A stretch of 64,000 nt of DNA. It comes from an uncultured bacterium (lineage in GTDB: Bacteria > Patescibacteriota > Minisyncoccia > UBA6257 > 2-01-FULL-56-20). The number at the start of each line of letters is the position of its first letter. Positions within the stretch are counted from its first letter, which is position 1. The stretch is from NCBI GenBank assembly GCA_963705915.1, contig OY970126.1:515552-579551 (forward strand), written 5' to 3'. A program made the position numbers and the translations under genes. Under the pieces are notes generated by a model. The model had not been told where the DNA came from and did no database searches. It saw only the letters and a program-made list of their open reading frames with translations. Of the stretch, positions 12,118 through 51,610 are shown in pieces.

Positions 12118-15100
12118 CTATTTCTCAGATGCCCCACCGCTCGGTGCCGCCGCAGCAGCCACTTCCTCCTCTTCTATATCTTCTTCGTGAAGGATGTGAA
12201 CGCCTTCAATATCCTGTTTACCGGCCGGGATCAGGCGGCCGATGATGACGTTTTCCTTCAAGCCGCGGAGTTTGTCCACCTTGGCTTCGATGGCTGCTTT
12301 CACGAGGACACGAGATGTGTCTTGGAATGAAGCCGCGGAAAGGAATGATTCAGCAGAAAGTGCAATGCGGGTGATGCCAAGCAATACCTCTTCTGATTTG
12401 GCGAGTTTCGCGCCCTGTTTCTTGAGCTCCTTATTCACTTCGAGGAACTTGGACTTCTCAACAATCTCGCCCATCACGAAGTCAGGTGCATCGCCGCCTT
12501 CCGTAATCTTCACGCGCGAGAACATCTGCTTCACGATCATTTCGATATGCTTGTTGTTGATCGAAGCGCCTTCGGAGAGATAGATTTTCTGGACTTCATT
12601 CACAATGTAGCGAGCGACTTCACGCATGCCCTTGTGTTCATACAACTCGTGGATGTCGAGGTTGCCTTCGGTGAGGAGGTCGCCCTTCTGAACCTTGTCG
12701 CCCTGATGGGCAAAGAACACCGTGCCGCGCGGGACGCTCACTTCCTGAGCTTTGGCCTTCTTGTTTTCCGCGATAAAGCGGATCGTCTTCAAATTGCCCT
12801 TTTCTTCGATCTTATCCACCGTCCCGTCGAATGGTGCGAGGATAGCGCGGCCCTTCGGTGAACGGGTTTCGAAAATTTCTTCGACCCGCGGAAGGCCGTG
12901 CGTGATGTCGGCACCGGCGACACCGCCCGAGTGGAAGGTGCGCATGGTGAGTTGAGTGCCCGGTTCGCCGATGGACTGTGCGGCGAGAACGCCGACGGCC
13001 GTGCCAAAGGCAACCGGTTTGCTCACGCCGAGATCAAAGCCATAACAACGTGCGCAAATGCCATAAAGCGTTTTGCACGTGATGGGTGACCGCACGATGA
13101 CTTCATCAATCTTGGTTGCTTCGATCGCTTCGGCCATCTCCTTGGTGATGGTTTCATTCGCACGGACAAGAATCTTGTTGCCGACTTTGATGTCGTGAAG
13201 CGCGGTGCGGGAATAGAGTTTCGATGAAAAACTCTGATTGAATTCTTTGCCGTCGCTGCGGAGGATGTCGATGCCTTCCTTGGTGCGGCAATCTTCCTCG
13301 CGGATCGTGAGATCCTGCGACACGTCAACCAAACGGCGCGTGAGATAACCAGCCTGCGCGGTCTTCAAAGCGGTGTCGGTCGTGCCTTTGCGGGCGCCGT
13401 GCGTCGAGATGAAGTATTCGAGAACCGACAAACCCTCCTTTAGGGACGACTTCACGGGAAGTTCGATCGTCTCGCCTTTCGGGTTTTGCACGAGTCCTTT
13501 CATACCCATCATCTGGATCGGCTGCGACCATGAACCGCGGGAACCGGAATCAACGATCTGGTAAATAGAATTGTCGATCGGCAAAATGCCGGAGACAATC
13601 TTCGCGAGCTCATTCTTGGTGCGCTCCCAAACGCTGATGACGCGGCTGCGGCGTTCGGCTGCGGTGAGTAAGCCTTCCGCAAATTGTTCGTGGATGAGAT
13701 TCACTTCGGCGTCGGCCTTCTTCATCACTTCCACTTTTTCCGGCGGGATCACGAGATCTGCCATCGCCCAGGTGATACCGGAGGTCGTCGCCATGTCGAA
13801 ACCGAGGAACTTCACGCGGTCGATCACGTCGCGCGTGGCATCCATGCCGTGGTCATGGAAAATCTTACTGAGCAACTGGTTCAATTTCTTCTTTGTTATC
13901 ACGTCGTTCACGAACGGGATCGTATCGCCGAGGGCGCGATTGAAAACCAAGCGGCCGGCGGTCGTCTCTATACCCTTCACGATGATCGGTGTATGAAGCG
14001 TGATGGCGCCGAAATGATGCGCGAGGAGCGCCTCATCTAAGCCGGTCATATGCTTTACCGGACCCTGTCCTTCAATTCTGCGGGTGAGATAGTAGCAACC
14101 AAGGACAACGTCATTCCACGGACCCGGGATGAGATCACCGGTCGCAGGCTTGAGCAAGTTTTTGCCGGCGGACATGATTTCTTCCGCTTCTTTCTGTGCT
14201 GGTTCGGAGAGCGGCAAGTGAACGGCCATTTGGTCGCCGTCGAAGTCTGCGTTAAACGCTGCGCACACGAGCGGCGGCAATTTGATCGCCAAGCCTTCAA
14301 CGAGCTGCGGACGGAACGCCTGCACCGACAAGCGGTGCAACGTTGGAGCGCGGTTCAAAAGCACGCGCTTCCCCTGCATCACTTCTTCGAGAACGGCGAG
14401 CACTTCGGGCGTGTGTTCTTCCATGTAACGCGAGGCGCTGCGAATGTTATGGGCCAAGCCGCGCTTGATGATCTCGGAAACGACGAATGGGCGGAAAAGT
14501 TCCAAGGCCATGCGCTTCGGAATACCCATCTCGTCGAGCTTCAATTTTGGACCGACGACGATAACCGAACGGCCAGAGTAGTCCACACGCTTACCGAGCA
14601 AGTTCTGACGGAAGCGACCCTGTTTGCCTTTCAACATGTCGGCGAGCGAGCGAAGCGGACGGCGCTGAGCGCTAAGCTGCTGGGTGCCGAAACGGGCCGA
14701 GTTATCAATCAAGGCATCAACAGCTTCCTGCAGCATGCGCTTTTCGTTACGGACGATCACGTCCGGCGCTTTGATCTCGAGCAATTTCTTGAGGCGATTG
14801 TTGCGGTTGATCACGCGGCGATACAAATCGTTCAAGTCGGACGTGGCATAACGGCCGCCGTCGAGGGCCACCATCGGACGGAGATCCGGAGGCAGCACGG
14901 GGAGCGAGGTCATGATCATCCATTCCGGCCGAGAGCCATTGCGGATCATCGCTTTGAACATCTTGAGGCGACGAAGCAGCTTGCTCTGGGCGAGCGGATC
15001 TTTGGCGCCTTCGAGTTCGGTCTCAATCTTCTGGATTTCTTTCTTGAGATCCATCTTTTCGAGAATCGAACGGACGGCCTCTGCACCGGATGAAGCCTTG

Positions 15101-18100
15101 AAAATGTTGCCGAATTTGCGCGAGAGCGTGAAGTATTCGTTCTCTGAAAGAATCTGGCCGACATGCAAGTCTTCCAAATAATCCTTGGTGGTGTCGGCGG
15201 CTTCGAGAATCTCGCCTTTCACGGCTTTGTCTTTATTGCCGACGGTCTTTAATTTGCCCTTGAGTTCGCGATCCAACTCGGCGAGGGCTTCCTTGCGGTT
15301 GTCTTCTTTTATTTCCGTGATGATGTATGCCGAATAATAAATGACGCGCTCCAATTTCTGTGCCGACACATCGAGCGAGAGCGAAAGGCGCGACGGGATG
15401 CTCTTCAAAAACCAGATGTGGCTCGCGGGTGTCGCGAGGGCGATGTGGCCGATGCGTTCGCGGCGGACCGCTGCACGCGTCACTTCAACACCGCACTTGT
15501 CGCAGACAACGCCCTTATAGCGGATCCTGCGATATTTGCCGCAGTAGCATTCATAATCTTTCGTTGGGCCGAAAATGCGCTCGGAGAATAAGCCATCTTT
15601 TTCAGGCCGCTGCGTGCGGTAGTTGATCGTCTCGGGCTTCGTGACCTCGCCATGCGACCAGCGCGCAATGTCTTCCGGCGAGGCAACGGTGATACGCAAC
15701 GCCGAGAAGCTGTCTTTGCGATCGGTTTCTGATTCATAAAGCGGTTGGATGTTGAATCCGAGCGACTTCAATTCGTTCACCAACACATTGAACGAGGCCG
15801 GAACGTTCGGCTCTTTGATCTGTTCGCCGCGGATGATCGATTCGTATGCCGCAGCACGACCAATCACGTCATCGGATTTGATCGTGAGCATTTCCTGAAG
15901 CGTGTGTCGTGCGCCGTAGCCTTCGAGCGCCCAGACTTCCATCTCACCGAAGCGTTGGCCGCCGAACTGCGCTTTACCGCCAAGCGGCTGCTGAGTGATG
16001 AGCGAGTATGGACCGATCGAACGCATGTGCGCCTTGTCTTCCACAAGGTGGTTCAGCTTGAGCATATAGATCTGACCAACGGTCACGCGATTATCGAACG
16101 CAACGCCGGTGCGGCCGTCGAAGAGCTTCACTTTGCCGTCTTTCGGAAGGCCAGCTTTTTCGAGTTCCGTTTCGATTTCGGCTTGCGTGGCAGAATCGAG
16201 TCCCGGCGTGATGGCACGATAGCCGAGCTTCGAAGCAGCCCAACCAAGATGGGTTTCCAAAATTTGTCCGAGGTTCATACGGGAGATGACGCCGAGCGGA
16301 TTCAAAACGATGTCAACCGGCGTGCCGTCTTCGAGATACGGCATATCTTCCACGGCGCGCACTTGCGAGATGACCCCTTTGTTGCCGTGCCGTCCGGCGA
16401 GTTTGTCGCCCGCCTGCACTTTGCGGAGTTCTGCGATTTCAACCTGAATACGCCGGATGATGCCGGGTTCGAGTTTGTCGCCGCGTTCGCGATCGAACAC
16501 TTTTACGTTCACCACACGACCGATTTTACCGTGCGGAAGCGTGAGCGACGTATCTTTCACGTCGCGCGCTTTTTCACCGAAGATTGCGCGCAAAAGCCGC
16601 TCTTCTGAGGTGAGTTCCGATTCACCTTTCGGAGAAATTTTACCGACAAGAATGTCCCCCGCTTTCACTTCGGCGCCGATGCGGACGATGCCTTCTTCAT
16701 CAAGGTTCTTCAATTTATCTTCTGAAACGTTAGGGATGTCGTAGGTCGTCACTTCCGGACCAAGCTTCGTATCACGCACGTCGCAGGAATATTCATCAAT
16801 ATGGATAGAGGTGAAACGATCGTCGCGGACGACGCGCTCGGAAATGATGATGGCGTCCTCAAAGTTTGCACCTTCCCATGAGACGAAGCTCACCAGAAGA
16901 TTTTGGCCTAATGCGAGCACGCCGTTTTCAATGGAAGGTCCATCGGCGAGGATTTGCCCTTTCTTCACTTTGTCGCCGGACGTGACGAGCGGACGCTGGG
17001 AAATACAGGTGAACTGGTTTGAACGCTTGAATTTCTCAAGCGTGTAATTCTTGGTTGCTTTTGGATATCTCACTTTGAGATGGGCTCCATCAGCTTCGAG
17101 AATTTCGCCATTTTCTTCGGCGACGATCACGTAGCCGGAGTCGAGCGCCACTTTTTCCTCTTGACCCGTTGAAACATAAGGCGCATCAGGCTTTACGGAC
17201 ACGACTGCCTGGCGTTGCATGTTGGAACCCATGAGCGCCCGGTTCGCATCGTCGTGCTGCAAGAACGGAATGAGCGACGTGGCAACGGAAACGAATTCAT
17301 GCGGCGCGACGTCGATATAATCGACTTCGTCCGGCGTCACCGTTCCCGGCTCACCTTTAATACGCGCTTCGAGCAACGGGCCAACGAGTTTGTCGTTTTC
17401 ATCCCGCTTGCTGCCGGCATGGGTAATCTTGTATTTTTCTTCTTCCGAAGCATCCATCCAAACAACGTCTTTCGTAATGACACTGTTCGTCACCTTCATG
17501 TACGGCGCCTCAAGGAAACCGAAATCGTTGATGCGGGTGTAGCTTGCGAGGTAGTTGATGAGACCGATATTCGAACCTTCCGGCGTCTGAATTGGACAGA
17601 TGCGACCATAGTGCGAGCGGTGCACGTCGCGCACTTCGAAACTCGCGCGCTCACGGGTGAGACCGCCCGGACCGAGCGCGGAAATGCGGCGCTTATGCTC
17701 AAGCTCCGCGAGCGGGTTCACCTGGTCCATAAATTGCGAGAGCTGTGAGCTTGCGAAAAATTCTTTGATGACGGCTGCGATCGGGCGGAAATTCACGAGC
17801 TGTGCAGGTTGAAGATTGTCTTTGTCTTCGGTCGACATGCGGTCTTGAATGATACGACGCAAGCGAGCGAGACCGATACGCAAACGGCCCTGGAGTAATT
17901 CGCCGACCGCCTTTAAGCGGCGATTGCCCAGGTGGTCGATGTCGTCCGGTTCAGCATCCGGGTCGTTATTTAAAGCGATGATTTCACGGACAATCCCAAC
18001 GATATCATCGGCATCAAGGAGCTTATAGGTCTTTTTTTGATTGAAGTCCAAACGCTGATTCATCTTGTAGCGGCCCACCTCCGAAAGGTCGTAGCGGTCG

Positions 18101-18876
18101 GGGCGCTCAAACATCGCACTGATGAGATTCTTCGCTGTTTCTGCGTTCGCCGGATCGCCCGGGCGCAAACGGCGATAGATTTCAACATATGATTCCGCAG
18201 CGTCCTTTGCGACGTCTTTCTTGAGCGTTGCATCGATGTATTTAATGAGTCCCCCGTCAACATCCTTGAATGCCGCGTGGATTTTTTCGGTCGTGAGGCC
18301 AAAGATACGGAGCAAATCGGTGACGGGCACCTTGCGGTGACGGTCGATCTTCACGCCGATTTCACCGTTGATGTCAGTTTCAAATTCGAGCCATGCGCCG
18401 CGGTTTGGAATAATTTTTGCGCCGAAAAGCTGACGGCCGCGATACGGGGTCGCCGTAAAATACACGCCCGCCGAACGTACAAGCTGGGAAACGACAACGC
18501 GCTCAACGCCGTTCACGATGAATGTGCCGCGTCCCGTCATGATCGGGAAATCACCGAAATAGACTTCTTGCTTTTGCTCCTTCCCCGTCCGCTTATTCAC
18601 CAAGCGGAGCGTGCAGCGCAACGGCGCTTCGTACGTCGCTTCTTTGTAGCGTGCCGTCGCTTCGTCATATTTCGGCTCATCAAATCGATAGTCCGAAAAA
18701 TATAATTCAAACTCCTTCCCGGTATGATCCCGGATCGGCGAGATTTCTTCGAGGAGCTCGTTTAATCCTTTTTTAAGAAACCATTCGTAGGATTTGAGTT
18801 GAGCTTCGTTCAAATTGAACGGAGCGATGAGCGACTTTGATTTACCGAACTGCTTCGTTGAGGTAAATTTTGCCAT
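12118..18876 (-). CDS. rpoBC: DNA-directed RNA polymerase beta-beta' fusion protein (rpoB-rpoC in one 2252-aa reading frame)
   Basis: The N-terminal ~1049 aa carries beta signatures, for example [18 protein letters not shown] and ...[12 protein letters not shown] at its C-terminus. A short linker TDRKDS joins it in frame to the beta' N-terminus [77 protein letters not shown]. Beta' motifs NADFDGD and the trigger-loop region follow. The junction is at about 15730. Confidence 0.9.
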
Positions 18877-22155: not shown

Positions 22156-22183
22156 TATAGCAACAAAAAAACGGCCCTTTGAT

Positions 22184-22298
22184 GTCGGCACATCCTACGT
22201 TCCCCATCGTCGAAACAATGAGTATCATCGGATTGGAGCGCTTTCACTTCTCTGTTCGGAATGGGAAGAGGTGGGACACGCCCGAATAAAGCACCGAC
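22184..22298 (-). rRNA. rrf: 5S ribosomal RNA
   Basis: Reverse complement reads ...GTGTCCCACCTCTTCCCATTCCGAACAGAGAAGTGAAAGCGC...GATGGGGAACGTAGG..., matching the 5S loop B/C consensus. Terminal helix is gtcggtgc/gtgccgac. Confidence 0.8.
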
Positions 22299-22333
22299 AT
22301 CAAAAGGTCGTTTTTTGTTGTAGAGAAAACAGC

Positions 22334-22440
22334 ATTTGTGTTTGTGGTTTGGAGGGTGTCACGGAGGCACGAAGGTGCCGAGTGTCAGCGGTCGCGCCAG
22401 CAGGCGCGAACCGCGACCCTACAAATCACAAACACAAATG
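22334..22440. repeat. Hairpin-flanked structured element, copy C, in the 23S-5S internal transcribed spacer (14-bp closing IR catttgtgtttgtg/cacaaacacaaatg)
   Basis: Core cggag-[ggcac gaag gtgcc]-gag-tgtc-[gcggt cgcgcc agca ggcgcg a accgc]. Base pairs covary relative to copy B: cgcgcg/cgcgcg in B versus cgcgcc/ggcgcg here, and ggccgc/gcggcc versus ggcac/gtgcc. Confidence 0.65.
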
Positions 22441-22569
22441 CGTAAGTCAGCATTGGGATGGTTGGCGGGATTATTAGTATCACTTGGCTTAACGCATTGC
22501 TGCGCTTACACCTATGACCTATCAACGTCGTAGTCTTCGACGAAATCACGCACACCTAATCTTGGGGTG

Positions 22570-22602
<33 letters not shown>

Positions 22603-22691
22603 CTTCCATACATAGCTACTCGGCAATTCACCTGGTGGCAAAGCCGATAGACCAGAGGTATGTTCAGTCCAGTCCTCTCGTCGATTACTCA

Positions 22692-23463
22692 CATATTACT
22701 ATGTGCTCAGACTATATCTTCATCCTTCCGCAAAGCGGTGTCGGACGTCGGCATATTATAGCGATTCAAAAACCGCTATCCGGTCATTCGGTATAGAACC
22801 GAAGACACAAGTCGTTACGGGGTCAAACCAAAAATCGTTTTTAATTCTTCTTTGGATCTTTTCTTTCTTGTAGCATAATTTTCGGATTGAACAATCAATA
22901 TATTATCTATTAATTGTTCTTTGACTGGCGACAAGTCGCAGCCAGCAGACAAAAGTAGTCGAGCTGAACTTATAATAGCTTGTGCCTGTTTCTTTTTAAA
23001 TTTAAGAAATGGCAACAAACTTTCTAAAATGTTCATCACCCGTTTGTGTCCGTTGATTCGCAGCTCCGTCATCCCATCATTTCTCCGATAAATGTATCCT
23101 ATGCCCAAGACTGTCCTGATCCAATGGAGCGGTTGGTCATGCCGGGAATCCTGATAAAAACAGATGGTCAGCATGACCCTTCGTGTTTTTAATCGAGATT
23201 CTGAACGCCGCTTGAGTTGTATCATCAAGCTACCATCTCCGTCCAAGAATCCAGCGATATACGCTAGATCGATTTGAGATTGACTTCCCACGGTATTGCC
23301 CTGTTCTTGTACCATATCTCAATGGTAAGGAATGAGGACCGTAATTCAAGCTGCCTTTAATAAATTTTTAATAAAAATATTAAGGACGCCGAAGTAAGAA
23401 TAGGGTTTCACCGTTATTAGCCGAGTTGGCAATCTGGATTACTCCAGAAAGTAGCAATTTCTT
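22692..23463 (-). mobile_element. Intron (presumed group I) in 23S rRNA at the sarcin-ricin loop region, carrying a LAGLIDADG homing endonuclease ORF
   Basis: Exon sequences GGTCTTAGT | ACGAGAGGACTGG rejoin to the universally conserved AGUACGAGAGGACC. The 772-nt insert ends in G and begins after U. About 270 nt of non-ORF sequence remains for a ribozyme core. Confidence 0.6.
22815..23315 (-). CDS. LAGLIDADG-family homing endonuclease (intron-encoded)
   Basis: LAYIAGFLDGDGSLMIQLK motif. 166 aa, single-motif type. Lies entirely within the 23S insertion. Confidence 0.85.
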   Translation of the reverse strand: MVQEQGNTVGSQSQIDLAYIAGFLDGDGSLMIQLKRRSESRLKTRRVMLTICFYQDSRHDQPLHWIRTVLGIGYIYRRNDGMTELRINGHKRVMNILESLLPFLKFKKKQAQAIISSARLLLSAGCDLSPVKEQLIDNILIVQSENYATRKKRSKEELKTIFGLTP

Positions 23464-23503
23464 ACTAAGACCAACTCCCCTCAAGTGTTAAACGCCTGCA
23501 GCA

Positions 23504-23544
<41 letters not shown>

Positions 23545-24428
23545 ACGTGCCACTTTAATTGGCGAACAGCCAAACGCTTGGGAGCTTCTCCACCCCCGCG
23601 CTGTGGCGAGCCGACATCGAGGTGCCGAGCATTGTCGTCGCTAGGGACGCTCGGACAATACTAGCCTGTTATCCCCGGAGTAGCTTTTATCCGGTGTCTC
23701 CGGCCTTTCTATCAAGAATTTAATGAATCGTAAGAAACAATAAATATAGCCGTCGGGTCACTAACTTCTGCTTTCGCACCTGCTCGACTTGTAGGTCTCG
23801 CAGTCAAGCCAGCTTTTGCGTTTGCACGTCCTGCCCGATTTCCATCCGGGCTAAGCTGACCTTAATAAACTCCTCCGTTACTCTTTTGGAGGAAAACGCC
23901 CCATTTAAACTGCCTACCAAGCACTGTCTCAGTTGGGTTTCCTCTAGGGTCCCCAACCGGTTAGACGTTAAAGTTCTAAAAATGGCTGTTTCATTGTCGG
24001 ATCCACACAACCCGAGAGCTGTGCTTCAAATCCTCACCACTACGCTACGTAGTAGAACTCTAAAATCAATACCAAGCTGCAGTAAAGCTTCCGGGGTCTT
24101 TTCGTCCCGCTGCAGGTATCCCGCGTCTTCACGGGAATCGCATTTTCACCGAGCTTGCCTCTGAGACAGTTCTCCGGTCGTTACGCCTTTCGTGCGCTTC
24201 GGAACTTACCCGAAAAGGAATTGCGCTACCTTAGAACGATTATAGTTATCGCTGACATTGACGAGGGCTTGAGTCAGTGAGCCTCCGTATTGCTACGGCA
24301 CCCCCAACCTTGACCTTCTCGCATCGGTCAGGCGTCACCCCCTATACATCCTCTTGCGAGTTAGCAGGGAGCTGTGTTTTTGGTAAACAGTCGCCAGAGA
24401 GACTTTTGTTGCAGCCCAACACCACTTT

Positions 24429-24737
24429 GATTTCAAGATTAAAGAAAGCTGTTTTTGATCCTTTTATAAAGCTCTTGCTTAGCTCTACCATGACTTTTTA
24501 ATCGTTGTTCTCTGCGAAGAGCGTCCTCAAAACTTCGATACGCTTCAATGTAAACAAATTTCCATTCGCCTACACTTCGTTTAGTAGCAGTTTGAAGACC
24601 ACGATTATGCTCAGATAATCTACGTCGAAGATTTTTTGTATGTCCGATGTAGAACTCTTTTGTCACAGTATTTTGGATGAAGTAAACAGCAAACATTTGC
24701 TCATTTTAATCCTATGCGGATTAAAAATATCTTAAAA
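24429..24737 (-). mobile_element. Compact 309-nt insertion in a 23S variable helix carrying a GIY-YIG ORF (IVS-like or degenerate intron)
   Basis: Flanked by an about 15-bp complementary pair, gcccagcaccactttg and caaagtggtgttgggc. The non-ORF part is only about 50 nt, which is too short for a group I core. Confidence 0.5.
24439..24696 (-). CDS. GIY-YIG nuclease-domain protein (85 aa)
   Basis: VYFIQNTVTKEFYIGHTKNLRRRLSEHN matches the GIY-YIG core (GIY...YIG, R, E, N). Confidence 0.7.
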   Translation of the reverse strand: MFAVYFIQNTVTKEFYIGHTKNLRRRLSEHNRGLQTATKRSVGEWKFVYIEAYRSFEDALRREQRLKSHGRAKQELYKRIKNSFL

Positions 24738-25987
24738 GCAAAGTGGTGCTGGGCAGGCCTTATCGCTAACTTACGGCCGCTTTTTTGCCTAGTTCCTTAG
24801 AGGCAAATCACTCGTTCCCCTTGGGCTACTCGCCCTATCCACCAGTGTCGGTTTACGGTACGGTTCCCATGTTTCATAACAAACACGCTTTTCTCGAAGG
24901 GCTCTTCACGATCATTAGCCAGGTAAATTCCTGACCTTCCGCCTCCGGCCGCTTGAACTTGCCGGTAGCGATATCAAACCAATAAGACACGATCGCTTAT
25001 TTCCCTTGCACGTGCAGGATAAAAACATAGGAGGGCTGGAATATTAACCAGCATTCCATCGACTGCCCCTTTCGGGATTGCCTTAGGACCGCCTAACCCG
25101 TGGTTGATTGCCAGTGCCACGGAAACCTTAGATTTTCGGGGTTCCAATTTCTCATTGGGATTGTGGTTACTCGTTCCGACATTTTCTCTTCCGGACGCTC
25201 CAGTCGCCCTCGCGGGTCGACCTTCACTGCAACCGGAATGCTCTCCTACCAGACGTGTCTCCCGAAGGAAACACGAATTCGTATCTTCGGTGCCGTGCTT
25301 GAGCCCCGATACATTTTCGGCGCCACCACCCGTCGAATAGTGAGTTGTTACACACTCTTTAAAGGATGGCTACCTCTAAGCCAACCTCCTATCTGTCTAT
25401 GGGTGATAACTACCTTTAACACTGAGCACGGACTTGGGGACCTTAGATGACGATCTGGGCTCTTCCCCTCGCGACCATGGAGCTTAGCCCCCACAGTCTG
25501 ACTAGTGAGTTTTTGACTCTCGGTATTCGGAGTTTGATTGATCTGTCGGCCTTTCGGCCTTTACAGATCATCCAGTGCTCTACCCCCAAGAGGAACACTC
25601 ACCGCTAGTCCTAAAACTATTTCGGAGAGAACCAGCTATTACGTAATTCGATTAGCTTTTCACTCCTTACCTCAGCTCATCCGAAGATTTTGAACAATCA
25701 ACCGGTTCGGGCCTCCCTCTCGATTTCTCGAGAGTTCACCCTGGCCAAGGTAAGCTCATCACGCTTCGGGTCTAGACTGTGCCGCCTATAGTTCGCCCTA
25801 TTAAGACTCGCTTTCGCTGCGCCTTCGCGCTATTCGCGCTTAGACAAGCGACACAATATAAGTCGTCGGATCATTCTTCAATAGGCACATTGTCGTTCTC
25901 GTCCGCGGATTGCTCCGCAGCCGTTCGAACTTCAATTCCTTGTAGACAAATGGTTTCAGGTTCTATTTCAACGGCCTCACCGGCCTG

Positions 25988-26024
<37 letters not shown>

Positions 26025-26998
26025 ATCTAGAAAAGTATTTAGCCTTACCAGATAGTACTGGCAAATTCCTTCGAAACTGTTTTACTTCGAAGTACTCAAG
26101 TAGGTAAACTAAGGAGACCAAAAGTTTTCGTCTACGGGGCTATCACCCGCTATGGCACTGGCTTTCCAGCCAGCTTCGACTAACTCATGATTTTTTGACT
26201 CCTCCACCAACCTCATAAATAACACAAGGTACATTGCTATACCCTATGTTATTTAGGAGGAGAGCGTTCATCACTTATAACTCCAAGGTTTGACCTTGCG
26301 ATCAGAACCTTAGTCTGGGCTCTTCCCTTTTCTCTCGCCGATACTCAGGGAATAAACTGTTTGTTCTTTGTTCCTCCGGCTACTGAAATGTTTTACTTCG
26401 CCGGGTACGCTCTTGGATTGCTCCAAGCCATTGAGGTTTACTCAACGAGGTTCCCCCATTCGGAAATTCCCGGATCACAGGTTGCTACGCACCTCCCCGA
26501 GACATATCGCTGCTACGCCGCGTCCTTCATCGCCTTTTCTAGTCTAGGCATCCACCATTCGCCCTTAATGCCAACCATCCCAATGCTGACTTAAATTTAT
26601 TTGCTCTGCCTGCCAAGAGAAATTGCGCGCGTGAAAAGTGCAAAACATCAAGCGCGTGCCTGGTCTCTCTATAATATAGAGCGGCTCCAGACATAAGATG
26701 GCGCAGAGCTACATATAATGACTCCGACTCTACAATTCGGAGTTCGTTCATGGACTATCGAACGAATTATGGAAAATTGCGTTCGACAGGATACCTAAGA
26801 AAAAAATCAGCCGCACATCGCGGCCGCTCTGCCATCATAAAATGGCGGGTTCAGCCGCTTGCTTTGAGAAGATTTTTATTCGTAAGCATCTGTCTTAGGG
26901 ATAAGTATACTCAGCTTGAAAAGGGTGTCAAGCATGATGGAAACAGATCAAAAGTTTCAAAAATAAAACCGCCTGGCGACATTGCTTGTAAAGCTTCG

Positions 26999-27699: not shown

Positions 27700-29163
27700 C
27701 TACACGTGGAATTTTTTCTTAATCTCGTTTTCGGCTTCTTCTTTAAATTCGTCTTTGGTTTCTCGCGCCCGGTCGGCGAGCTTTTTGAGGTCGTTATCGT
27801 TCATCTTGTGCAACGCCTTCATACGTTTCAAGAGGTATGCGCGATCGTTTTTTTCTGGATCCTCCAAAACTTCTTCAAGCAGCGCAACGATGATCCATCC
27901 AACGCGCATGCCTTCCGGAAGACCGAGCTCTTTCATCACGTCGTCGCCGTTCACCTTGAGCATCTTAGGCGAAATCGGATCGTCCTTTACCTTCTCAATC
28001 ATAAAGAGCAAATGACGCAACTTGTAAGGCACGGCTTTCTTGACGCCCGAACCGATCCGGTCGGCTTCACGAACTTTTAATAAATCGGGAACGGTTTCCG
28101 GGCCAACGCGCGCAAGAAATCGCCGCACGCCATGTGCCGTCACGTCGCCAACGTTGTAATAGAACATGTGCTGGCGCACGAGGTGCGTTACGTCTTCAAC
28201 AAACTCTCGTGAGAAGCGCAATCGATCGAGCGCTTTCGCCGCCATCTTTGCTCCGATGTATTCATGGTTGTAAAACGTTGACTTCGGACCCTCACCGGCT
28301 TTCGCGCGAGGCTTGCCGGCGTCGTGAAGCAATGCGGCCATCCGGACTTCGAGTGAATACCCTTCGCGGGCGGTGTAATCGAGTGCACGGATGTTGTGTT
28401 CGAAGACGGTATAAATATGATGGAGATTTTGTTCAACGCCGATCCCTTCGCGAAGTTCAGGCAAAACATACTGGAGAAGGCCCAGCTCTTCAAGAAGCAC
28501 GATCCCCTTTGCGGCGCGGGGGGTCATCACAATTTTCACGAGCTCTTCGCGGATGCGCTCTTTCGCGATCACTTCGAGTTCGCGCGAATACTTTTCAATC
28601 GCGCGACGGGTATTCAGTTCAATTTCAAAATCAAGTTCAACAGCAAATCGTACCGCGCGCATAAGCCTTAGAGCGTCTTCATGGAAACGGACTTCTGGAT
28701 CGCCGACAGTTCTGATGATTGCTTTCTTGAGATCTTTTTGCCCGCCGTGCGGATCGATGATTTCACCGCCCAAAGACATCGCCATCCCATTCACGGTAAA
28801 GTCCCGGCGGCTCAAGTCGTCTTCGATCGTGCGAGCAAACGTGACCTCGTCGGGATGGCGTTTGTCGGTGTATTTCCCCTCAATGCGATATGTCGTGACT
28901 TCGATCACTTTGAGCTTTGAATTTTCTGAGTCGGTTTTCACGCCGACCGTGCCGAAGGTATTTTCGTAAACGCTGTCAGGAAAAAGTTTGAGAATCTCCG
29001 GCGGCTTTGCGTTCGTCGCAATATCCCAGTCTTTTGGCTCGCGCCCCAACAAAAGATCGCGGACGCAGCCGCCAACAAGATAGGCTTCAAAACCGGCTTT
29101 TGCAAGCTTCGCTGCGATTTCTGAAACTTCAGCCGGAACCGTTTTGAGGTCCGATTTCATCAT
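27700..29163 (-). CDS. cca: CCA-adding tRNA nucleotidyltransferase with C-terminal HD domain
   Basis: YLVGGCVRDLLLGREPKDWDIATNAKP (pol-beta NTase head) and a downstream HD domain (LLHDAGK). Confidence 0.85.
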   Translation of the reverse strand: MMKSDLKTVPAEVSEIAAKLAKAGFEAYLVGGCVRDLLLGREPKDWDIATNAKPPEILKLFPDSVYENTFGTVGVKTDSENSKLKVIEVTTYRIEGKYTDKRHPDEVTFARTIEDDLSRRDFTVNGMAMSLGGEIIDPHGGQKDLKKAIIRTVGDPEVRFHEDALRLMRAVRFAVELDFEIELNTRRAIEKYSRELEVIAKERIREELVKIVMTPRAAKGIVLLEELGLLQYVLPELREGIGVEQNLHHIYTVFEHNIRALDYTAREGYSLEVRMAALLHDAGKPRAKAGEGPKSTFYNHEYIGAKMAAKALDRLRFSREFVEDVTHLVRQHMFYYNVGDVTAHGVRRFLARVGPETVPDLLKVREADRIGSGVKKAVPYKLRHLLFMIEKVKDDPISPKMLKVNGDDVMKELGLPEGMRVGWIIVALLEEVLEDPEKNDRAYLLKRMKALHKMNDNDLKKLADRARETKDEFKEEAENEIKKKFHV

Positions 29164-29186: not shown

Positions 29187-30357
29187 CTACCGCACGGTCG
29201 CACCGAATTCTTTGGCGGTCTCCTGTTCAATACTCTTGTGCAAGACGTCCACCTCGTCGTTCGTAAGCGTGCGATCACTTGAGCGATAGGTTATGCGATA
29301 GGCATAGCTTTTGTTCCCTGCACCAAACTTAGCATCGTTCTCATAGGAATCGATAAGCTCCACTTGTTCAACAAGATCTCCCGCGATATCGCGGACAAGA
29401 TCAAAATAATCGTTCGGGCTGAAGGTTTTCGGGACAATGAATGAGATGTCGCGCACCACGGGCGGATATTTGCTGACTTCCACAAACTTTTGCCCCATAT
29501 GAAGCTGGCGCTTCACGCGTTCATCGTCTGACCATAAGAGGCGAATGTCTGGCAACTCCATACTGATGATGGCAAGCCGTTCGAGGCCGAAACCAAACGC
29601 CCATGCGTTATATCCTTCGACGCCGAATTTTTTGAAAACGCTTTGCTTCGTCATGCCGCCGCCCAAAATTTCAACCCATTGGCCGTTCACTTTCACTTCC
29701 ACCTGAAGCGACGGATCGGTGTATGGGAACGTGTCATCCAAAAACCGATACTCGACATCGGCGCCGAACAATCCTTGTACAATCTCAATCAACGCATTCC
29801 GCAAATCATCGATCGTGAGCGGCATTGTGTCGGCTGGCGTCATGTACCATCCACCAAACTGATGAAAGATGTTCATGTGCTTGCGGTCAATCTCATCTTT
29901 ACGGTAGACCTTGCCGTAGCAGACAACGCCGAGCGGTTCTCGTCGCGCAAGACGTTCTTTTACCTCGGGGAGTTGCGTGTAGTAATACCACATGACCGTG
30001 TCATGCGTGCGAAGAATATTGTTATCATCTATATAATAGGTGTCCGACTTGCTCCGCGCGGGATGGTCGACCGGGAAATCGAAAAGATCAAAACTGATGT
30101 CTGCCGGGACAATTTCGGGAATAATGATGTCGTCGAAATTTTTGAGTGCCGAAACGCTTTTTGCCTTTTCGACGATTTCATGGAGCGGGCTCCCCGGCGT
30201 GCGCGAAAGGTCGGGCATCGCAAGATAGCGTTTGATCCGCTGCGCTTCAGCATCGGTGCGCGTATTAAGCAACGTCAAAATCTTTTTTTGCTCGTCCAAC
30301 GAGACGCGATATTCATGCGATTCCATAGAGAGTATTGTAGCGGTATCGATTGTCATT
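29187..30357 (-). CDS. pheS: Phenylalanine--tRNA ligase, monomeric mitochondrial-like type (alpha catalytic core fused to a C-terminal FDX anticodon-binding domain). The ORF track extends to 30512 but the likely start is MTIDTA at 30357.
   Basis: Class II core with FPYTDPS (PheS motif 2 region) and GFGLERLAI (motif 3). The C-terminal VVRDISFIVP...ELIDSYEND...KSYAYRITYRSSDRTLTNDEV resembles the FDX-ACB domain. An upstream extension would overlap the convergent pyrE. Confidence 0.8.
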
Positions 30358-45722: not shown

Positions 45723-46370
45723 TTAACACGCCCCGCCGGAGGTGCAATCGATTTGGCGGGCGCTTACCGTTGTTTCAAAATGGAGCGTCGTACTCTGAAC
45801 GGCAGGATCGGTGCTGCTTGGGCTCACGCCGAGCATGATCGTGATGCGCGGTGGCCACTGGTCGCCTTCTATCTGTCCCATCATTTGGAATGTGAGATAA
45901 TCCACCTTCACGTCATCGCCGGTGAGCGGCCCCGGCACGTCACCGTTTTCGAGACTCGCCGAACGCATGAGCGTGCTGCTATCAAGCGTGTACTCAACAA
46001 GCTCATCCTGCGCGTTGTAGAATTCGATCGTAGGACATGTCCAAATCGGATCGCCGTTGTTCGGCTGAACGTTGCACCCGAGCGGCTGATTGTTTTCAAG
46101 GCCACAATCAGCATCAAGTTGCGTACTATTCGGCGTGTGGCAGAAAAGATAACCGGTACGAATTTCGCGGGCCATCTGCTCGATCGAAAGGCTCACGTTA
46201 TCTTCCGAAGAAAGGAGCAATGCGGTTTCGCGCTGGGTATGGATCGCACTCACGAATCCGCCAATCGCGATCGCCGTGAGAACGGAAAAGAGCAAGATCG
46301 AGACGAGCACCTCGACAAGCGTAAATCCGCTTTCGGAAGAATGATTATTGTGGTTAGGGGTGCCAGTCAT
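45723..46370 (-). CDS. Type IV pilin-like (minor/pseudopilin) protein. The track ORF extends to 46451; likely start MTGTP at 46370.
   Basis: Class III signal: ...SSESG|FTLVEVLVSILLFSVL (G, then F+1, E+5). Confidence 0.65.
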   Translation of the reverse strand: MTGTPNHNNHSSESGFTLVEVLVSILLFSVLTAIAIGGFVSAIHTQRETALLLSSEDNVSLSIEQMAREIRTGYLFCHTPNSTQLDADCGLENNQPLGCNVQPNNGDPIWTCPTIEFYNAQDELVEYTLDSSTLMRSASLENGDVPGPLTGDDVKVDYLTFQMMGQIEGDQWPPRITIMLGVSPSSTDPAVQSTTLHFETTVSARQIDCTSGGAC

Positions 46371-46857
46371 AGAAATGGTCTTCGAGGATGAGTTGGCTGC
46401 TAAACGGAGTTCCCGCGTTCCAGGTGACGACCGACTCCACGTCGATTTCACTCGGTGACGGCGAAGAAAGGATTATCTGGCGGCTAAAGATCGTCGATGT
46501 GCCGTTCGTATAGCCATAGGTGTTATTAACCGAATTAAAAACAAGAGGCCTGTTCCTCGCATTAATCAACGATGTCGAATCGTACGAAACGAGCGCTTGC
46601 ACGCCATTGCAATTAAAGTTGCAGAGCGCGCCCCATCCAAGCGATGGATCATAGACGTCATGGTCAATGATATTTTTGGTGACTTCGATGCCCTCGGCAG
46701 CAAGGTACACGGCGATGTCTTGGTTGGTGGTTGTCCGCGTGATGAAAAATGATTGCGTGAGAAGCGCGGCGATACCGAGAAACGCCGTCGTGAGCATGGT
46801 GAGCGCAACGATGGTTTCGATGAGCGTCTGCCCCGAGCGGTTGCGGTTGCTCGCCAT
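46354..46857 (-). CDS. Type IV pilin-like (pseudopilin) protein
   Basis: RNRSG|QTLIETIVALTMLT prepilin leader with Glu at +5. Confidence 0.65.
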   Translation of the reverse strand: MASNRNRSGQTLIETIVALTMLTTAFLGIAALLTQSFFITRTTTNQDIAVYLAAEGIEVTKNIIDHDVYDPSLGWGALCNFNCNGVQALVSYDSTSLINARNRPLVFNSVNNTYGYTNGTSTIFSRQIILSSPSPSEIDVESVVTWNAGTPFSSQLILEDHFYDWHP

Positions 46858-46860
46858 GGG

Positions 46861-47487
46861 CTAAAAACTTACCTGGCCCGTTGGGCCTATTTCGATATTT
46901 TCCGTTGCCGTGCCGTCAACGGTCTCAAGGTTCACATACGACGTCGACGTCGTTTCAAAAGCATTGCGACGCAAAGGGCTTAGCATATCCACAGTCTGCA
47001 CCATAAGCGTTGCGGGCTGGGGAGGATAGAACATGATGACCGATGCGCTCAAACAGTTCGTCGTGTCGTTGATCATCGTGACGCCTTGCGCCACGGGTAT
47101 TTGCCACGTGCCGTTGCTATACGGCACGATATCGTTTAACAAAAACGTCGACGAATTTTCAACAGTCGCGAGCGTGGGGCACACCCCGGTTTTTTGCGCA
47201 CTCTGCGGGCTATACACAAAGAGGGAATATTTGTTGGCTGCAATATCAAAATACACGCCATAGCCGCAAGCAGGGGTTGAACTCGGGGCGCTATACGTTG
47301 CAACGGCGAGTTGTTTTGCCTGAAGGATAACACCCGCAATCTTTGCCGATTGCACCGAAAGGGTAATTTGGTTGCGGCTTGTCCCGCTATAGACGATGAC
47401 AATCGTCACAATGAACGTGATGATTGCAATCACGACGAGAAGTTCGACAATCGTAAAGCCGCGCCTGCCGTTCACGTTATTCACCAT
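46861..47487 (-). CDS. Type IV pilin-like (pseudopilin, GspH/FimT-like) protein
   Basis: GRRG|FTIVELLVVIAIITFIV is a canonical prepilin N-terminus. Confidence 0.7.
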   Translation of the reverse strand: MVNNVNGRRGFTIVELLVVIAIITFIVTIVIVYSGTSRNQITLSVQSAKIAGVILQAKQLAVATYSAPSSTPACGYGVYFDIAANKYSLFVYSPQSAQKTGVCPTLATVENSSTFLLNDIVPYSNGTWQIPVAQGVTMINDTTNCLSASVIMFYPPQPATLMVQTVDMLSPLRRNAFETTSTSYVNLETVDGTATENIEIGPTGQVSF

Positions 47488-47513
47488 TTTATTTTACCAT
47501 AGGAGTTCCGGGG

Positions 47514-48371
47514 CTAGAGGCCGCCGATGTGAAGATATCCGCTCGTCACGGCATAGCTTCCAAAGAAAACGATTGCCGCCCCGATCGCAAGAAACGGGGC
47601 GAACGGCAGCGTGCCTTTCATATTCTTTTTGCCCCGAACGATGAGCGCGATCCCCACGACCGCACCAATAATAAAGGCACCGGCAACGAGAACCATGATG
47701 TCCGGCCAGCCGAATATGAGGCCGAGCGGAAACGCGAGCTTCACGTCGCCCATCCCCATCCCCTTTCCGCGCGTTGCAACGACGAGGATAAAGAAGAATA
47801 GGCACGCGATCACCGCAGCCGCAAGATGATTAAGGAGAATATTTTCCTGCAATCCAAAAAATCCCGCATACGAACCAAAGAGCGAATGGTTCGCAGGGCC
47901 GAAATAGCCGCCGAGCGTTGTGATGAAAAATATGCCGAGCACGCCGAGGGCAAAACTCAATTCATCCGGAATGATGCCGAGACGCAAATCGATACACGCA
48001 ATGAGGAGCAGTATTTCGAACACGACCACCCACAATGTTGAAACAACAATGAGCGGTTCGCCCGGGCCGGTGAGCATGTAGGTGACGATCGGAACGAATG
48101 TAAAAATGCACGCCGAGAGCAACTCGACGATTGGATATTGCCAACCGATGCGCGCGCCGCAGTGCCGGCACTTTCGGTTTTGGATGATAAAACTCACGAC
48201 CGGAATGAGCTCGTACCAGTGGAGCGTTTCGCCGCAGTGCGGACAGTGCGAACGGCCACCGATCACATTCGGGTCCGCCACCACACGCTCGCCGTCGTAT
48301 CGAAGCGATACCACGTTCAAAAAACTGCCGATCATGAGGCCGAAGATGAAGAGGATTATCTCTGCGGGCAT
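47514..48371 (-). CDS. pilD: Prepilin peptidase (A24 family)
   Basis: N-terminal Zn-binding CPHCGETL...CRHCGARI, catalytic Asp regions including GMGDVKLAFPLG. Polytopic. Confidence 0.9.
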   Translation of the reverse strand: MPAEIILFIFGLMIGSFLNVVSLRYDGERVVADPNVIGGRSHCPHCGETLHWYELIPVVSFIIQNRKCRHCGARIGWQYPIVELLSACIFTFVPIVTYMLTGPGEPLIVVSTLWVVVFEILLLIACIDLRLGIIPDELSFALGVLGIFFITTLGGYFGPANHSLFGSYAGFFGLQENILLNHLAAAVIACLFFFILVVATRGKGMGMGDVKLAFPLGLIFGWPDIMVLVAGAFIIGAVVGIALIVRGKKNMKGTLPFAPFLAIGAAIVFFGSYAVTSGYLHIGGL

Positions 48372-48520
48372 GAGGTCATTCTAGCACGGAGATTATTGCG
48401 TCGAGGTCAGCCCGTCCCGAGCTTTCGTTCAACAGCGTCCATGCCAAGAACTCTACGCCGCCGCCAAACGCTGTCAAAACTTTTTTAATGAATTTTTAAT
48501 GTTAACCATATCGTGAATTC

Positions 48521-48546
48521 AAAAACCCCGCTTTGCGGGGGTTTTT
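48521..48546. terminator. Intrinsic terminator (aaaaaccccgc-tttg-gcgggggttttt), symmetric
   Basis: Perfect 6-bp GC hairpin flanked by A5 and T5, downstream of pilA (minus strand). Confidence 0.6.
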
Positions 48547-48576
48547 GAATATCTTTAGCTAGGAATCCTTACTCTT

Positions 48577-49089
48577 CTAAAGAGTTACGCAATACTCAGG
48601 AGCAGCACAGGTCGAGATAGTATCTCCAGAAGGATTGCTCGGAAGCGTTGGCGGATTATAGCCGTCAAAAACAGTACCGCTTCCATTTTCCATGGTTGCC
48701 TGTATGACGTACGTTGTTGCTGGAGCAGTCGTGTTCTCTGCAAACAAATAAACATATTTGTTGGTGTTTATTGGATCGCTTGGAATGGAACTCACACCAA
48801 TACCAGCCGTCCCAACAAGGTCGGCTCCCATTGTATTATAGTACGTCCCCCCCGTTTCCGTCTGGCCGCCAATAATGGTAGCCGCTCCGCAATTCGCCGT
48901 ACCCGGATAGAAACCGCATTTGTTGTAGTAAAGTTCGAGACCATTCTGGATTTCATGGATGTCCGAGACACGTCGAGCGTCTCTTCCAGCCTGTTGCGTC
49001 GGGCCAAGACCCACCAAGACAACAGACGCCAAGATGGCGATGATAGCAACGACGATCAGGATTTCGATAAGGGTGAAACCTTTTTTCAT
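48577..49089 (-). CDS. pilA: Type IV major pilin
   Basis: MKKG|FTLIEILIVVAIIAILASVV is a canonical short-leader type IVa pilin. 170 aa with C-terminal Cys residues. Confidence 0.8.
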   Translation of the reverse strand: MKKGFTLIEILIVVAIIAILASVVLVGLGPTQQAGRDARRVSDIHEIQNGLELYYNKCGFYPGTANCGAATIIGGQTETGGTYYNTMGADLVGTAGIGVSSIPSDPINTNKYVYLFAENTTAPATTYVIQATMENGSGTVFDGYNPPTLPSNPSGDTISTCAAPEYCVTL

Positions 49090-49191
49090 GAAAGTTTAAT
49101 GAATTTTCCCTTCATCATTCGACCTTTCTTATGTATCCAGTATAACAGATGATTTTTCTCGGCCTGTGGAAAGAGGCTGGATAATGGCTCT

Positions 49192-50322
49192 CTATTTTTC
49201 GAACAATCCCACATATTCGTGGAGTTCAAATGAACGATTCCGTGAAAGCCCCGTCTTTTCCTTGAGAATGCCTTTATTTTCAAACTCCTTTACGAGTCGG
49301 GTTGCGGTAACAAAAGCAACATCAAGCTTGTCGGCGATCTGATTGATACTGAGGATTGGCTGGGAGAAAAGCATGATCAGGAGTTGTTGGCCCAATTCCG
49401 CACGTCTGCCCATTTCTATAATCTTTTTCTCGTAACGGCGGCGCAGGGTGATGATTTTTTCAAAAGTCGCCTTCCCTTTTGTGGCAGTTTCGACCACTCC
49501 GGTCAGAAAAAATTTGATCCATTGCTCGATATCGCTCGATGCTCGAACAACCGTAAGGGCGTCGTAGTAAGCTCCTTTGTGCCGTTCAAAAAAATCTGAA
49601 AGGTATAACGTCGGCTTTGCAAGAATGCCGGCTTCAACGAGTTGAAGGGTTATAAGCAGACGGCCGGTTCTGCCGTTGCCGTCGAGAAAGGGATGTATAG
49701 TCTCAAATTGGTAGTGGCTCATGGCAGACTTCACGAGTAGCGGGATCTCGAGATCTTTGTTGTGCCAGAATTTTTCGAGATCGGAAAGTAGTTCCGGTAA
49801 TTCAGTTGGATGTGGAGGCACAAAGACTGCGTTTTGGAGGTTTGAACCTCCTATCCAATTCTGGCTTGTCCGAATTTCGCCAGGCGTTTTGTGTTCTCCG
49901 CGTACACTCGTAAGGAGAATCTTATGGGCATTCCTCAGCAACCTCATCGAAAGTGGAACAGCTTCAAGCTCGTTAATGGCATAATTCATGGCTGAGATAT
50001 AATTCTGCACTTCTTTCCAATCATCGCGTCGCTCGGGATTGATATCTTCTTTCGGTTGGAGGGCCTCTTCTATGCGAGTTTTCGTTCCCTCAATGCGGCT
50101 GGAGGTTATCGCTTCTTTGGCGATGTGCATCCTTATGAAATAATTCACGTCGGGAACAAGCGTGGAATAGGCATTCAATTCGCCAAGAAGACGCATTGCC
50201 TCTGCAAGTAATACGTTGACCTTCTGGTCTTCCCACATAAAAGGCTTATTGATAAATGAGGGACTAAAACTTTTATATTGATCCTGCCGCACGTAGGTGC
50301 CGGATGTAAATGTTGTTTTCAT
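49192..50322 (-). CDS. fic: Fic-family protein (class II, with N-terminal inhibitory motif), putative AMP-transferase
   Basis: Canonical Fic motif [13 protein letters not shown]-terminal TSSRIEG fits the [S/T]xxxE[G/N] alpha-inh motif. C-terminal wHTH-like region. Confidence 0.85.
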
Positions 50323-50398
50323 AAGTGGAAATAAGGATTTCTTTATTTACACTTTAGCATATAAAGTGGAAATAAGCAAAATCTTGTTTACACTTCCT

Positions 50399-51610
50399 CT
50401 ACGAGAAGCTCGCCGTGAGCCGATAAATTGGAATGAGCACCGAGGCAAAGAGCAGTCCAACCATAATGCCCATGCCGATGATGAGAATCGGCTGGATGAG
50501 CTCAACGAGGTTGCCGGTCACCTGGTCGGCTTCGCGGGTGTAGATGCCGGCAAGCCGGCTGAACATATCTTCTATCTTGCCGGTTGTCTCGCCCACGGCA
50601 ACCATCTGCGAAACGAGCGCCGGGAAAAAATCGGGATATTTTGCGATGCTCGCGGAGAGCAGTTCGCCTTGCCGCACGTCTTGGGCGATCTGGTGGATCA
50701 CATCGCGGTACAGTGAATTATCAACCATGTGGCCGATGATCTCGAGCGCTTGCGCGATCGGGATGCCGCCGTGCACGAGGAGGGCCGCGGCGTTGCCAAA
50801 GCGGGCGATCACAACCGGCATGTAGACTTGCTTTGCAACCGGCAAGCGCATTTTGAGTTCGTCCGCAATCGTCTGCCCTTCCGCGGTCTGGAAATAATCA
50901 AAACCCACGATGCCGAGGACGACAACCGCGATGATGATTGCCGGCCACCATTTTCCGAGGAATGATCCTACTTTGAGGAGAATGTTGGTGTACCACGGGA
51001 GCGCCACGTTGTTCTGCGCGAATACCTGACCGAGCTGGGGATAGACGAACGTGACAATAATGAAGGCAACGACAACAAAGACCACGAGCACGATTGAAGG
51101 GTAGATGAGCGCGGACGCTGCCTTTGATGCGAGGTCGCCTTCTTTTTCCGTGTAATCGGCAAGGAACACGGCGATTTCGTTGAGATTGCCGGTCACTTCT
51201 GAGGCCCGGATCATCTCAACATAATAGTCGGGAAATACTTTCCCCTGCCGCTCCATCGCCTGCGAAAACGAAAGGCCGGCGTCGATGTCTTGCGTGATAT
51301 CGAGGATCGCCCCTTTGAGCTTGGTGTTCGTGGTCTGCTGGGCGAGAATTTTGAGGGCGCTATTCAAGGGAAGACGGGCTTCGAGGAGCGTTGCAAGCTG
51401 GCGGGCAAAAACGATCATATCTTTGCGGCCCACCCGATTGAAGAAATCGGCAACGGAGTCGAGTATACTCGGCGCCTCGGTTGCCGAGAGGCTCATCACA
51501 AACAGGTTGTGGCTGTTCAAAACAACGACGGCGCTGTCGCGGTCGCTTGCTTCCACAAAGCCCACCTGCAATTCCCCGTCGCGTGTTTTGGCTTGATATT
51601 TGAACTTCAT
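50399..51610 (-). CDS. pilC: Type IV pilus assembly platform protein (GspF/PilC family)
   Basis: Two GspF repeats with three TM segments. Sits between pilT and pilA. Confidence 0.9.
   Translation of the reverse strand: MKFKYQAKTRDGELQVGFVEASDRDSAVVVLNSHNLFVMSLSATEAPSILDSVADFFNRVGRKDMIVFARQLATLLEARLPLNSALKILAQQTTNTKLKGAILDITQDIDAGLSFSQAMERQGKVFPDYYVEMIRASEVTGNLNEIAVFLADYTEKEGDLASKAASALIYPSIVLVVFVVVAFIIVTFVYPQLGQVFAQNNVALPWYTNILLKVGSFLGKWWPAIIIAVVVLGIVGFDYFQTAEGQTIADELKMRLPVAKQVYMPVVIARFGNAAALLVHGGIPIAQALEIIGHMVDNSLYRDVIHQIAQDVRQGELLSASIAKYPDFFPALVSQMVAVGETTGKIEDMFSRLAGIYTREADQVTGNLVELIQPILIIGMGIMVGLLFASVLIPIYRLTASFS

Follow-up and report, generated by a model that had tools for sequence, protein, structure and literature searches.

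A candidate single-chain phenylalanyl-tRNA synthetase of mitochondrial-type architecture encoded in a Paceibacteria genome

Single-chain and two-chain synthetases

To our knowledge, textbooks credit all bacteria with a heterotetrameric, proofreading phenylalanyl-tRNA synthetase (PheRS) and reserve the single-chain, editing-free form for organelles; we also know of no alphaproteobacterial relative of mitochondrial PheRS, the origin of which is usually left open. In the mitochondrial enzyme (human FARS2, PDB 3CMQ/3TUP; yeast MSF1; TIGR00469), a PheS-type catalytic core and a C-terminal ferredoxin-fold anticodon-binding domain (FDX-ACB) are joined in one chain. The same two modules are encoded by a gene on the minus strand (29187..30326) of the 64-kb stretch of DNA considered here (hereafter the window), which belongs to an 827,485-bp contig (OY970126.1) from an uncultured member of the Patescibacteria. 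It is likely, with a probability that we put at about 0.75, that this gene specifies the housekeeping PheRS of the cell, a compact single-chain enzyme that has replaced the canonical (αβ)2 PheST in this branch of the Paceibacteria.

The limits of the gene were set from the list of open reading frames (ORFs), the N-termini of orthologues and Pfam. The ORF is intact, with its stop codon at 29187-29189, and the ATG at 30326, which yields a protein of 379 aa beginning 'MESHEYRV', is the best choice of start because orthologues begin with either 'MEYK...' (376 aa, the majority) or 'MDSHEYRV' (379 aa, P0002). Other in-frame starts are located upstream at 30356 (389 aa) and 30404 (405 aa). The latter corresponds to the call in the public record (P0001, 100% identical, on the 827,485-bp contig), and the upper limit of 30357 given in an earlier, sequence-only reading of this DNA is one base beyond the former. 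The protein is currently labeled 'hypothetical protein' by NCBI and 'PheRS alpha chain' by JGI.

The sequence-only reading had proposed that a pheS core is fused to a C-terminal FDX-ACB domain and had suggested profile searches for the two families; both domains are found in the one chain, with Pfam scores far beyond chance. The class IIc (PheS-type) core, tRNA-synt_2d, extends over 29505..30191 (minus strand; residues 56-284 of the 389-aa version, E 3.2e-49, 168 bits) and contains the motif 2 and motif 3 arginines, Arg142 and Arg250. The FDX-ACB domain, a homologue of the B8 domain of bacterial PheT, occupies 29190..29474 (minus strand) and matches positions 1-94 of the 94-position profile (residues 295-389 of the 389-aa version, E 7.9e-25, 87.6 bits against a cut-off of 31.1). 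No Pfam matches to Phe_tRNA-synt_N (PF02912), B3_4 or B5 were obtained in the protein even at E 0.1, in agreement with the earlier statement that it lacks the editing domain. In an alignment of 75 diverse relatives, R142, H150, F154, Q156, and R250 form invariant columns.

Among proteins of solved structure, human mitochondrial PheRS, represented by 3CMQ and mutants of it, is closest in sequence (E ~1e-59, ~32% identity), with both modules covered; bacterial PheS chains are matched at E 1e-32 to 1e-21 and PheT C-termini at ~6e-9. The FDX-ACB region, too, resembles its counterpart in human mitochondrial PheRS far more closely than it does the PheT C-termini. A structure predicted by AlphaFold from a 75-sequence alignment (predicted local distance difference test 96.1; predicted template modeling score 0.91) has 3cmq, 5mg*, and 8p8x as its top Foldseek matches, with whole-chain template modeling (TM) scores of 0.78-0.80 and root mean square deviations of 3.1-3.7 Å over ~385-405 columns. 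These matches represent the closed form of the enzyme, whereas the tRNA-bound open form 3tup gives a TM score of 0.58, a gap as expected for a rigid-body hinge between the modules.

Neither the window protein nor mitochondrial PheRS has a coiled-coil N-terminus or an editing domain, and the window enzyme, like the mitochondrial one, probably works without a beta subunit. The two differ in that the host of the window enzyme is bacterial, and in that the window protein is shorter than its human mitochondrial counterpart, without an insertion of ~40 residues between motifs 2 and 3, the lack of which causes HMMER to split the human match into two stretches. At three further sites it departs from the mitochondrial sequence: the motif 2 Glu is replaced by Gly, the Thr of 'HTS' by Asp, and a Phe of 'FPF' by Tyr. 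The mitochondrial-type architecture claimed from the sequence alone is upheld as far as domains and fold are concerned, whereas strict membership of the pheS_mito family (TIGR00469) is not established, since the score of 237.8 bits is below the equivalog cut-off of 258.35.

The other curated models behave similarly. The canonical pheS (TIGR00468) and pheT (TIGR00472) models give 152.4 and 73 bits against cut-offs of 237.45 and 403, and the 'PheS-related mystery ligase SrmL' model (NF051887) gives 225.5 bits against a cut-off of 300. The SrmL alignment extends from one end to the other (profile positions 38-345 of 349), so that SrmL should share the layout of core and FDX-ACB; a literature search on SrmL found no publication. 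Membership of SrmL was rejected on its score, and that of canonical PheS on its score, the absence of PF02912, and the lack of pheT from the window as well as from the surroundings of 80 orthologues (see below). Of ten diverse relatives tested, the closest, P0121 (63% identical), passes pheS_mito at 264.3 bits, as do seven of the ten in all, whereas none reaches the SrmL cut-off. The window protein is hence placed as a divergent bacterial branch of the mitochondrial-type architecture and fold that is captured by no curated equivalog model.

Relative to the canonical bacterial (αβ)2 enzyme, the core is homologous to PheS (31% identity to Escherichia coli PheS over 232 residues) and the C-terminal domain to the last domain of PheT, but there is one chain rather than two, the PheS N-terminal domain is missing and no pheT is adjacent; domains B1-B7 are absent, and with them the B3/B4 editing site. 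Closer in layout are the single-chain PheRSs of giant viruses and short eukaryotic forms (e.g., that of Tupanvirus soda lake, P0340), which have the same two Pfam domains in 340-360 aa, are 35-40% identical, keep the canonical HTS / FHQxEG / FPF pocket, and pass pheS_mito. A second single-chain subfamily (P0466, P0477, P0485, P0489; ~381 aa) has the same architecture and comes from the same bacterial class; its members were retrieved with the 50%-identity representative P0124, to which they are ~41-43% identical, and they keep the Asp of motif 2 and, for the most part, FPF. The architecture is thus already known from organelles and giant viruses, and a bacterial 'mystery ligase' relative has been flagged by NCBI curators; no report of a bacterial single-chain PheRS, or of a bacterial lineage using one, was found in the literature. 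In published work, the B2 domain is absent from many PheRS beta subunits of the Candidate Phyla Radiation (CPR; = Patescibacteria) (Mukai, 2017), and PheRS alpha and beta cluster together (Meheust, 2019).

To judge from this architecture, the N-terminal class IIc core would bind Phe and ATP and form Phe-AMP, and the FDX-ACB domain, closed at first, would swing open, like that of human mitochondrial PheRS, before reading the tRNA-Phe anticodon GAA. A76 would finally receive the Phe, for which the 2′-OH is used by mitochondrial PheRS, as by other PheRSs (PMC3716924). Since there would be neither a beta subunit nor a B3/B4 editing site, accuracy against Tyr would rest on the synthetic site alone. 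We infer from the architecture that the enzyme is monomeric, and likewise its hinge motion and its specificity for Phe and tRNA-Phe; pheST is probably absent from the remaining 763 kb of the contig.

The question of a second enzyme

Direct searches for pheT and a further pheS covered the 64-kb window and the flanks of orthologous loci. The latter derive from a search of GTDB genomes that returned 187 candidate stretches, and the locus results refer to the best 80 of these, in which the orthologue is full-length and intact. When E. coli PheT and PheS were compared with the whole window by tblastn, no match besides the PheRS gene was obtained, and neither pheT nor a second pheS was detected by the same means within ±10 kb of the orthologue in the 80 related loci; in the window and in these loci alike, the matches of the PheT query fall solely on the C-terminal domain of the PheRS gene itself. 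Nor was a PheT-type domain found by Pfam among the annotated window ORFs, which comprise nearly every ORF of 150 aa or more, apart from those contained within a longer gene. Within the 64-kb window, the absence of a nearby pheT and of a flanking beta-subunit gene, as noted from the sequence alone, is borne out by both methods.

Evidence at the level of populations is provided by an anvi'o marker matrix for CPR genomes (PMC8672522, supplement), of which the first 178 genomes were analyzed, 114 of them being well covered. FDX-ACB is present and B5 absent in 17 of the 114, and Phe_tRNA-synt_N is missing in 16 of these 17, compared with 29 of 89 B5-positive genomes (Fisher p = 2e-6). Because FDX-ACB and B5 are located in the same PheT protein and B5 was detected in 60 of the 62 genomes showing the PheS N-terminal domain, chance loss cannot explain FDX-ACB without B5; the pattern therefore indicates that some CPR genomes carry an FDX-ACB protein and no PheT. 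The 17 genomes form a coherent group, or lineage, that is enolase-poor and rich in PNPase and RbfA. The cultured Paceibacterium Minisyncoccus archaeiphilus has adjacent canonical pheT and pheS genes, and no second PF03147 or PF01409 protein beyond pheST occurs among its genes listed (through at least gene 700), a pattern that fits mutual exclusivity of the single-chain PheRS and pheST. On the indirect evidence as a whole, which also includes the intactness of the gene in the best 80 of the 187 stretches and its conservation (see below), the window genome quite probably lacks pheST.

Several observations weigh against a housekeeping role for the single-chain protein. Its scores on the pheS_mito and SrmL models are comparable and both below cut-off, and the existence of the SrmL model places a non-housekeeping role for related bacterial proteins on record. 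The conserved acidic residue of motif 2 is lost in the window subclade (see below), and the marker matrix is anonymized, so that it offers no direct tie to the lineage of the window. A 414-aa single-chain PheS + FDX-ACB gene (L082 10001-11245) is present in the Oligoflexia metagenome-assembled genome (MAG) JAIBBV010000034.1, which is not labeled CPR and is of normal size; it is probably an extra or accessory copy there, although the contig may alternatively be mis-binned. Nealsonbacteria contain both the second single-chain subfamily and canonical PheT, possibly in different genomes. Co-occurrence of the single-chain PheRS and pheST in some genomes is possible, as is a canonical pheST located elsewhere on the contig, beyond the window.

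The near equality of the two model scores, the Oligoflexia gene, whose neighbors are metabolic (M20 peptidase, GCS2, MR_MLE, beta-lactamase, FrhB-like), and the restriction of the examined part of the genome to the window also speak for an alternative in which the window protein is an accessory, SrmL-like ligase that works beside a canonical pheS-pheT pair encoded elsewhere and has some other tRNA-linked or a non-translational role. We consider this unlikely. Two PheRS systems would not be expected in a ~0.83-Mb genome of minimal redundancy, and the gene is better conserved than nearby housekeeping genes, the identity to the closest relatives being 85% for PheRS, ~70% for the adjacent CCA-adding enzyme, and 66% for GatA. 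The CPR genomes with FDX-ACB but without B5 and the PheS N-terminal domain, the canonical-type M. archaeiphilus without a single-chain copy among its listed genes, and the behavior of the ten relatives on the two models likewise argue for the single-chain protein as the housekeeping PheRS.

Distribution, relationships and active-site pocket

Among the best 80 stretches, the orthologues with a lineage name come from Kaiser-, Adler-, Zambryski-, Nomura-, Taylor-, and Liptonbacteria, all candidate phyla of the Paceibacteria, a class across which the gene is common and strongly conserved. In the MAG binchicken_co3_598, two contigs, CAYUBE010000018.1 (L012) and CAYUBE010000033.1 (L013), each carry a full-length orthologue that is 78% identical to the window protein, indicating either that the bin is mixed or that the gene has been duplicated. 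When 1.84 billion representatives were searched exhaustively, the wider family amounted to 220 clusters at E ≤ 1e-30. The second Paceibacteria subfamily, found with P0124 as query, is represented in Wolfe-, Staskawicz-, Nealson-, and Portnoybacteria.

A neighbor-joining tree was built from 100 near-full-length sequences, with E. coli PheS as the single outgroup. In it, the window protein pairs with P0121 (100% bootstrap) and belongs to a six-member clade (81% bootstrap) with P0121, P0124, P0125, P0126, and P0127. One member of this clade is from the Oligoflexia MAG, and the relatives of the clade include several Paceibacteria lineages; the second Paceibacteria subfamily groups with the window protein in a bacterial clade. 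The six-member clade is positioned outside a large, poorly resolved group of eukaryotes and viruses that contains human FARS2 and whose short forms, retrieved with P0137 as query, include Tupanvirus PheRS and a plant protein. The deep branches are weakly supported and the outgroup is single, so that any transfer between bacteria and eukaryotes may have gone either way. A comparison with spirochaete monomeric PheRS, recommended in the sequence-only reading, had no object, as no such enzyme could be found. The known PheRS of spirochaetes is an archaeal-type heterotetramer.

Many of the short (340-360 aa) pheS_mito-type proteins, the group that includes Tupanvirus PheRS (P0340), are encoded on metagenomic contigs of 0.26-0.53 Mb, and it seems that giant viruses harbor the single-chain PheRS type in large numbers.

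The presence of eukaryotic mitochondrial enzymes and the Tupanvirus protein in the wider family raises the prospect that the gene was acquired horizontally, and recently, from a eukaryote or a giant virus, or that it is an assembly contaminant, with no settled role in either case. Such an origin is very improbable, and indeed close to refuted by context and phylogeny: the gene is found in an ordinary Paceibacteria context with even GC content across the window, the same synteny surrounds it in the 881-kb chromosome of a relative, intact orthologues are present in 80 genomes or more, and the six-member clade does not fall inside the eukaryote/virus group.

The pocket of the window subclade departs from that of the other groups at three positions. 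The motif 2 segment VYRKDEIDRKHMNIFHQFGGW (29847..29909, minus strand), delimited from the translation and a comparison of the family, contains 'FHQFGG', so that Gly158 occupies the position of an acidic residue. The segment around Asp109 ('THDT'; 29994-30014, minus strand) holds the second subclade-specific change, Asp in 'LRTHDTV' where others have Thr, and the third is Tyr202, giving 'FPY' where others have 'FPF'. All three are shared by the window protein and most of ~200 orthologues. Asp or Glu follows 'FHQx' in >90% of aligned full-length representatives, in each of the 238 members listed for the giant-virus/eukaryote group and the second Paceibacteria subfamily, and also in human FARS2 (FHQLE) and E. 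coli PheS. We take this acidic position to be that of Thermus thermophilus Glu-α220, which contacts the alpha-amino group of the substrate.

Among the ~200 orthologues, Gly158 is found almost solely together with Asp109, while the combinations Asp109 + Asp158 and Thr109 + Asp158 also occur. Comparison of these sequences suggests that Thr109 + Asp158 is the ancestral state and that the changes were acquired in the order Thr + Asp, Asp + Asp, Asp + Gly; this ordered co-occurrence in turn suggests relocation of a carboxylate. In the AlphaFold model, Asp109 is situated at the N-terminus of a helix comprising residues 109-118. His108, Gln156, Phe200, and Ala243 of the AFG motif are kept. The change in the pocket may represent either neutral compensation or altered discrimination.

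Under the second of these possibilities, the protein would be the sole PheRS-like enzyme of the cell, but Asp109, Gly158, and Tyr202 would alter its activation or discrimination of the substrate, for instance by selectivity among Phe, Tyr, and m-Tyr that offsets the lost editing, or by a relaxed need for the alpha-amino group. The loss of a near-universal acidic residue, its coupling to Asp109 with intermediate and ancestral states still in existence, and the exchange of one Phe of the FPF motif for Tyr are consistent with such an enzyme. We nevertheless regard it as improbable, more so than an accessory ligase, since ordered and coupled substitutions resemble a relocation of the carboxylate, which would preserve function, and the remaining pocket residues are retained.

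The housekeeping assignment, the phylogeny, and the pocket can be combined in a wider proposal, which we advance tentatively and at clearly less than even odds. A large branch of the Paceibacteria would have dropped the (αβ)2 PheRS, and with it the editing of Tyr-tRNA-Phe, for a single-chain enzyme of a bacterial lineage outside the mitochondrial and giant-virus enzymes. The 'mitochondrial' architecture would then be bacterial in origin, and eukaryotes may have received it from a CPR-like donor. The pocket of the subclade would subsequently have been rewired stepwise (Thr109Asp, then Asp158Gly, plus Phe202Tyr), possibly holding accuracy in the absence of editing. If correct, this would amount to a natural experiment in translation without Phe/Tyr proofreading across a whole bacterial lineage, would explain a possible dropout of the phylogenomic and completeness markers pheS and pheT in these genomes, and would supply a bacterial sister group with which the origin of mitochondrial PheRS could be tested. 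The coupling of Asp109, Gly158, and Tyr202 would constitute a defined and testable rewiring of the active site of an essential enzyme, and the NCBI annotation of the gene could be corrected.

Gene neighborhood and other features of the window

The PheRS gene is located between a gene for a CCA-adding enzyme and pyrimidine and cell-wall genes, with a phosphoribosyltransferase gene divergently oriented upstream. The CCA-adding enzyme gene (27700..29163, minus strand; Pfam PolyA_pol, PolyA_pol_RNAbd, and HD), a neighbor and not part of the synthetase, is 23 bp downstream on the same strand, an arrangement that makes co-transcription of the two genes probable. In 26 of the 80 orthologous loci a CCA gene follows on the same strand, 16 bp to 6 kb downstream; of the 73 loci with room for it, 9, all from close relatives, have it immediately next to the PheRS gene (<300 bp). 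An operon with the CCA-adding enzyme was accordingly rejected as a defining feature of the single-chain PheRS, the linkage holding among close relatives only.

The content of the window is typical of Patescibacteria, the group to which the named relatives of the PheRS protein belong (Candidatus Paceibacterota, Minisyncoccia, Parcubacteria). Encoded proteins include AlaRS, MiaA, GatB, GatA, LigA, a MurD-like ligase, and FtsW, and the RNA genes are an unlinked 23S/5S pair and those for tRNA-Pro, tRNA-Met, and tRNA-Asp. The alanyl-tRNA synthetase (AlaRS; 2494-4407, minus strand; tRNA-synt_2c and tRNA_SAD) has only 637 aa. Since the usual bacterial AlaRS has ~875 aa, its C-terminal region appears to be missing.

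A single ORF of 2252 aa (12118-18876, minus strand) represents an rpoB-rpoC fusion that encodes one beta-beta′ polypeptide, in which all RpoB domains (aa 22-1044) are directly followed by all RpoC domains (aa 1056-2146). In the 23S rRNA region (22182-26578, minus strand), the match covers 3259 nt against a model of 2925 nt, leaving ~330 nt extra. The annotated 3′ end of the 23S gene is at 23320 and the 5S gene is at 22182-22299; between them are an ORF for a LAGLIDADG homing endonuclease (22815-23315) and a sub-threshold match to a group I intron (22689-22921; 39.4 bits, E 1.3e-7). A LAGLIDADG ORF is located inside the rRNA region of one relative.

A type IV pilus cluster (45723-57052, minus strand) comprises two prepilin-like genes and genes for a prepilin peptidase, a PilC-like T2SSF protein, two T2SSE ATPases, and PilM, and is interrupted by a gene of the Fic/DOC family (49192-50322).

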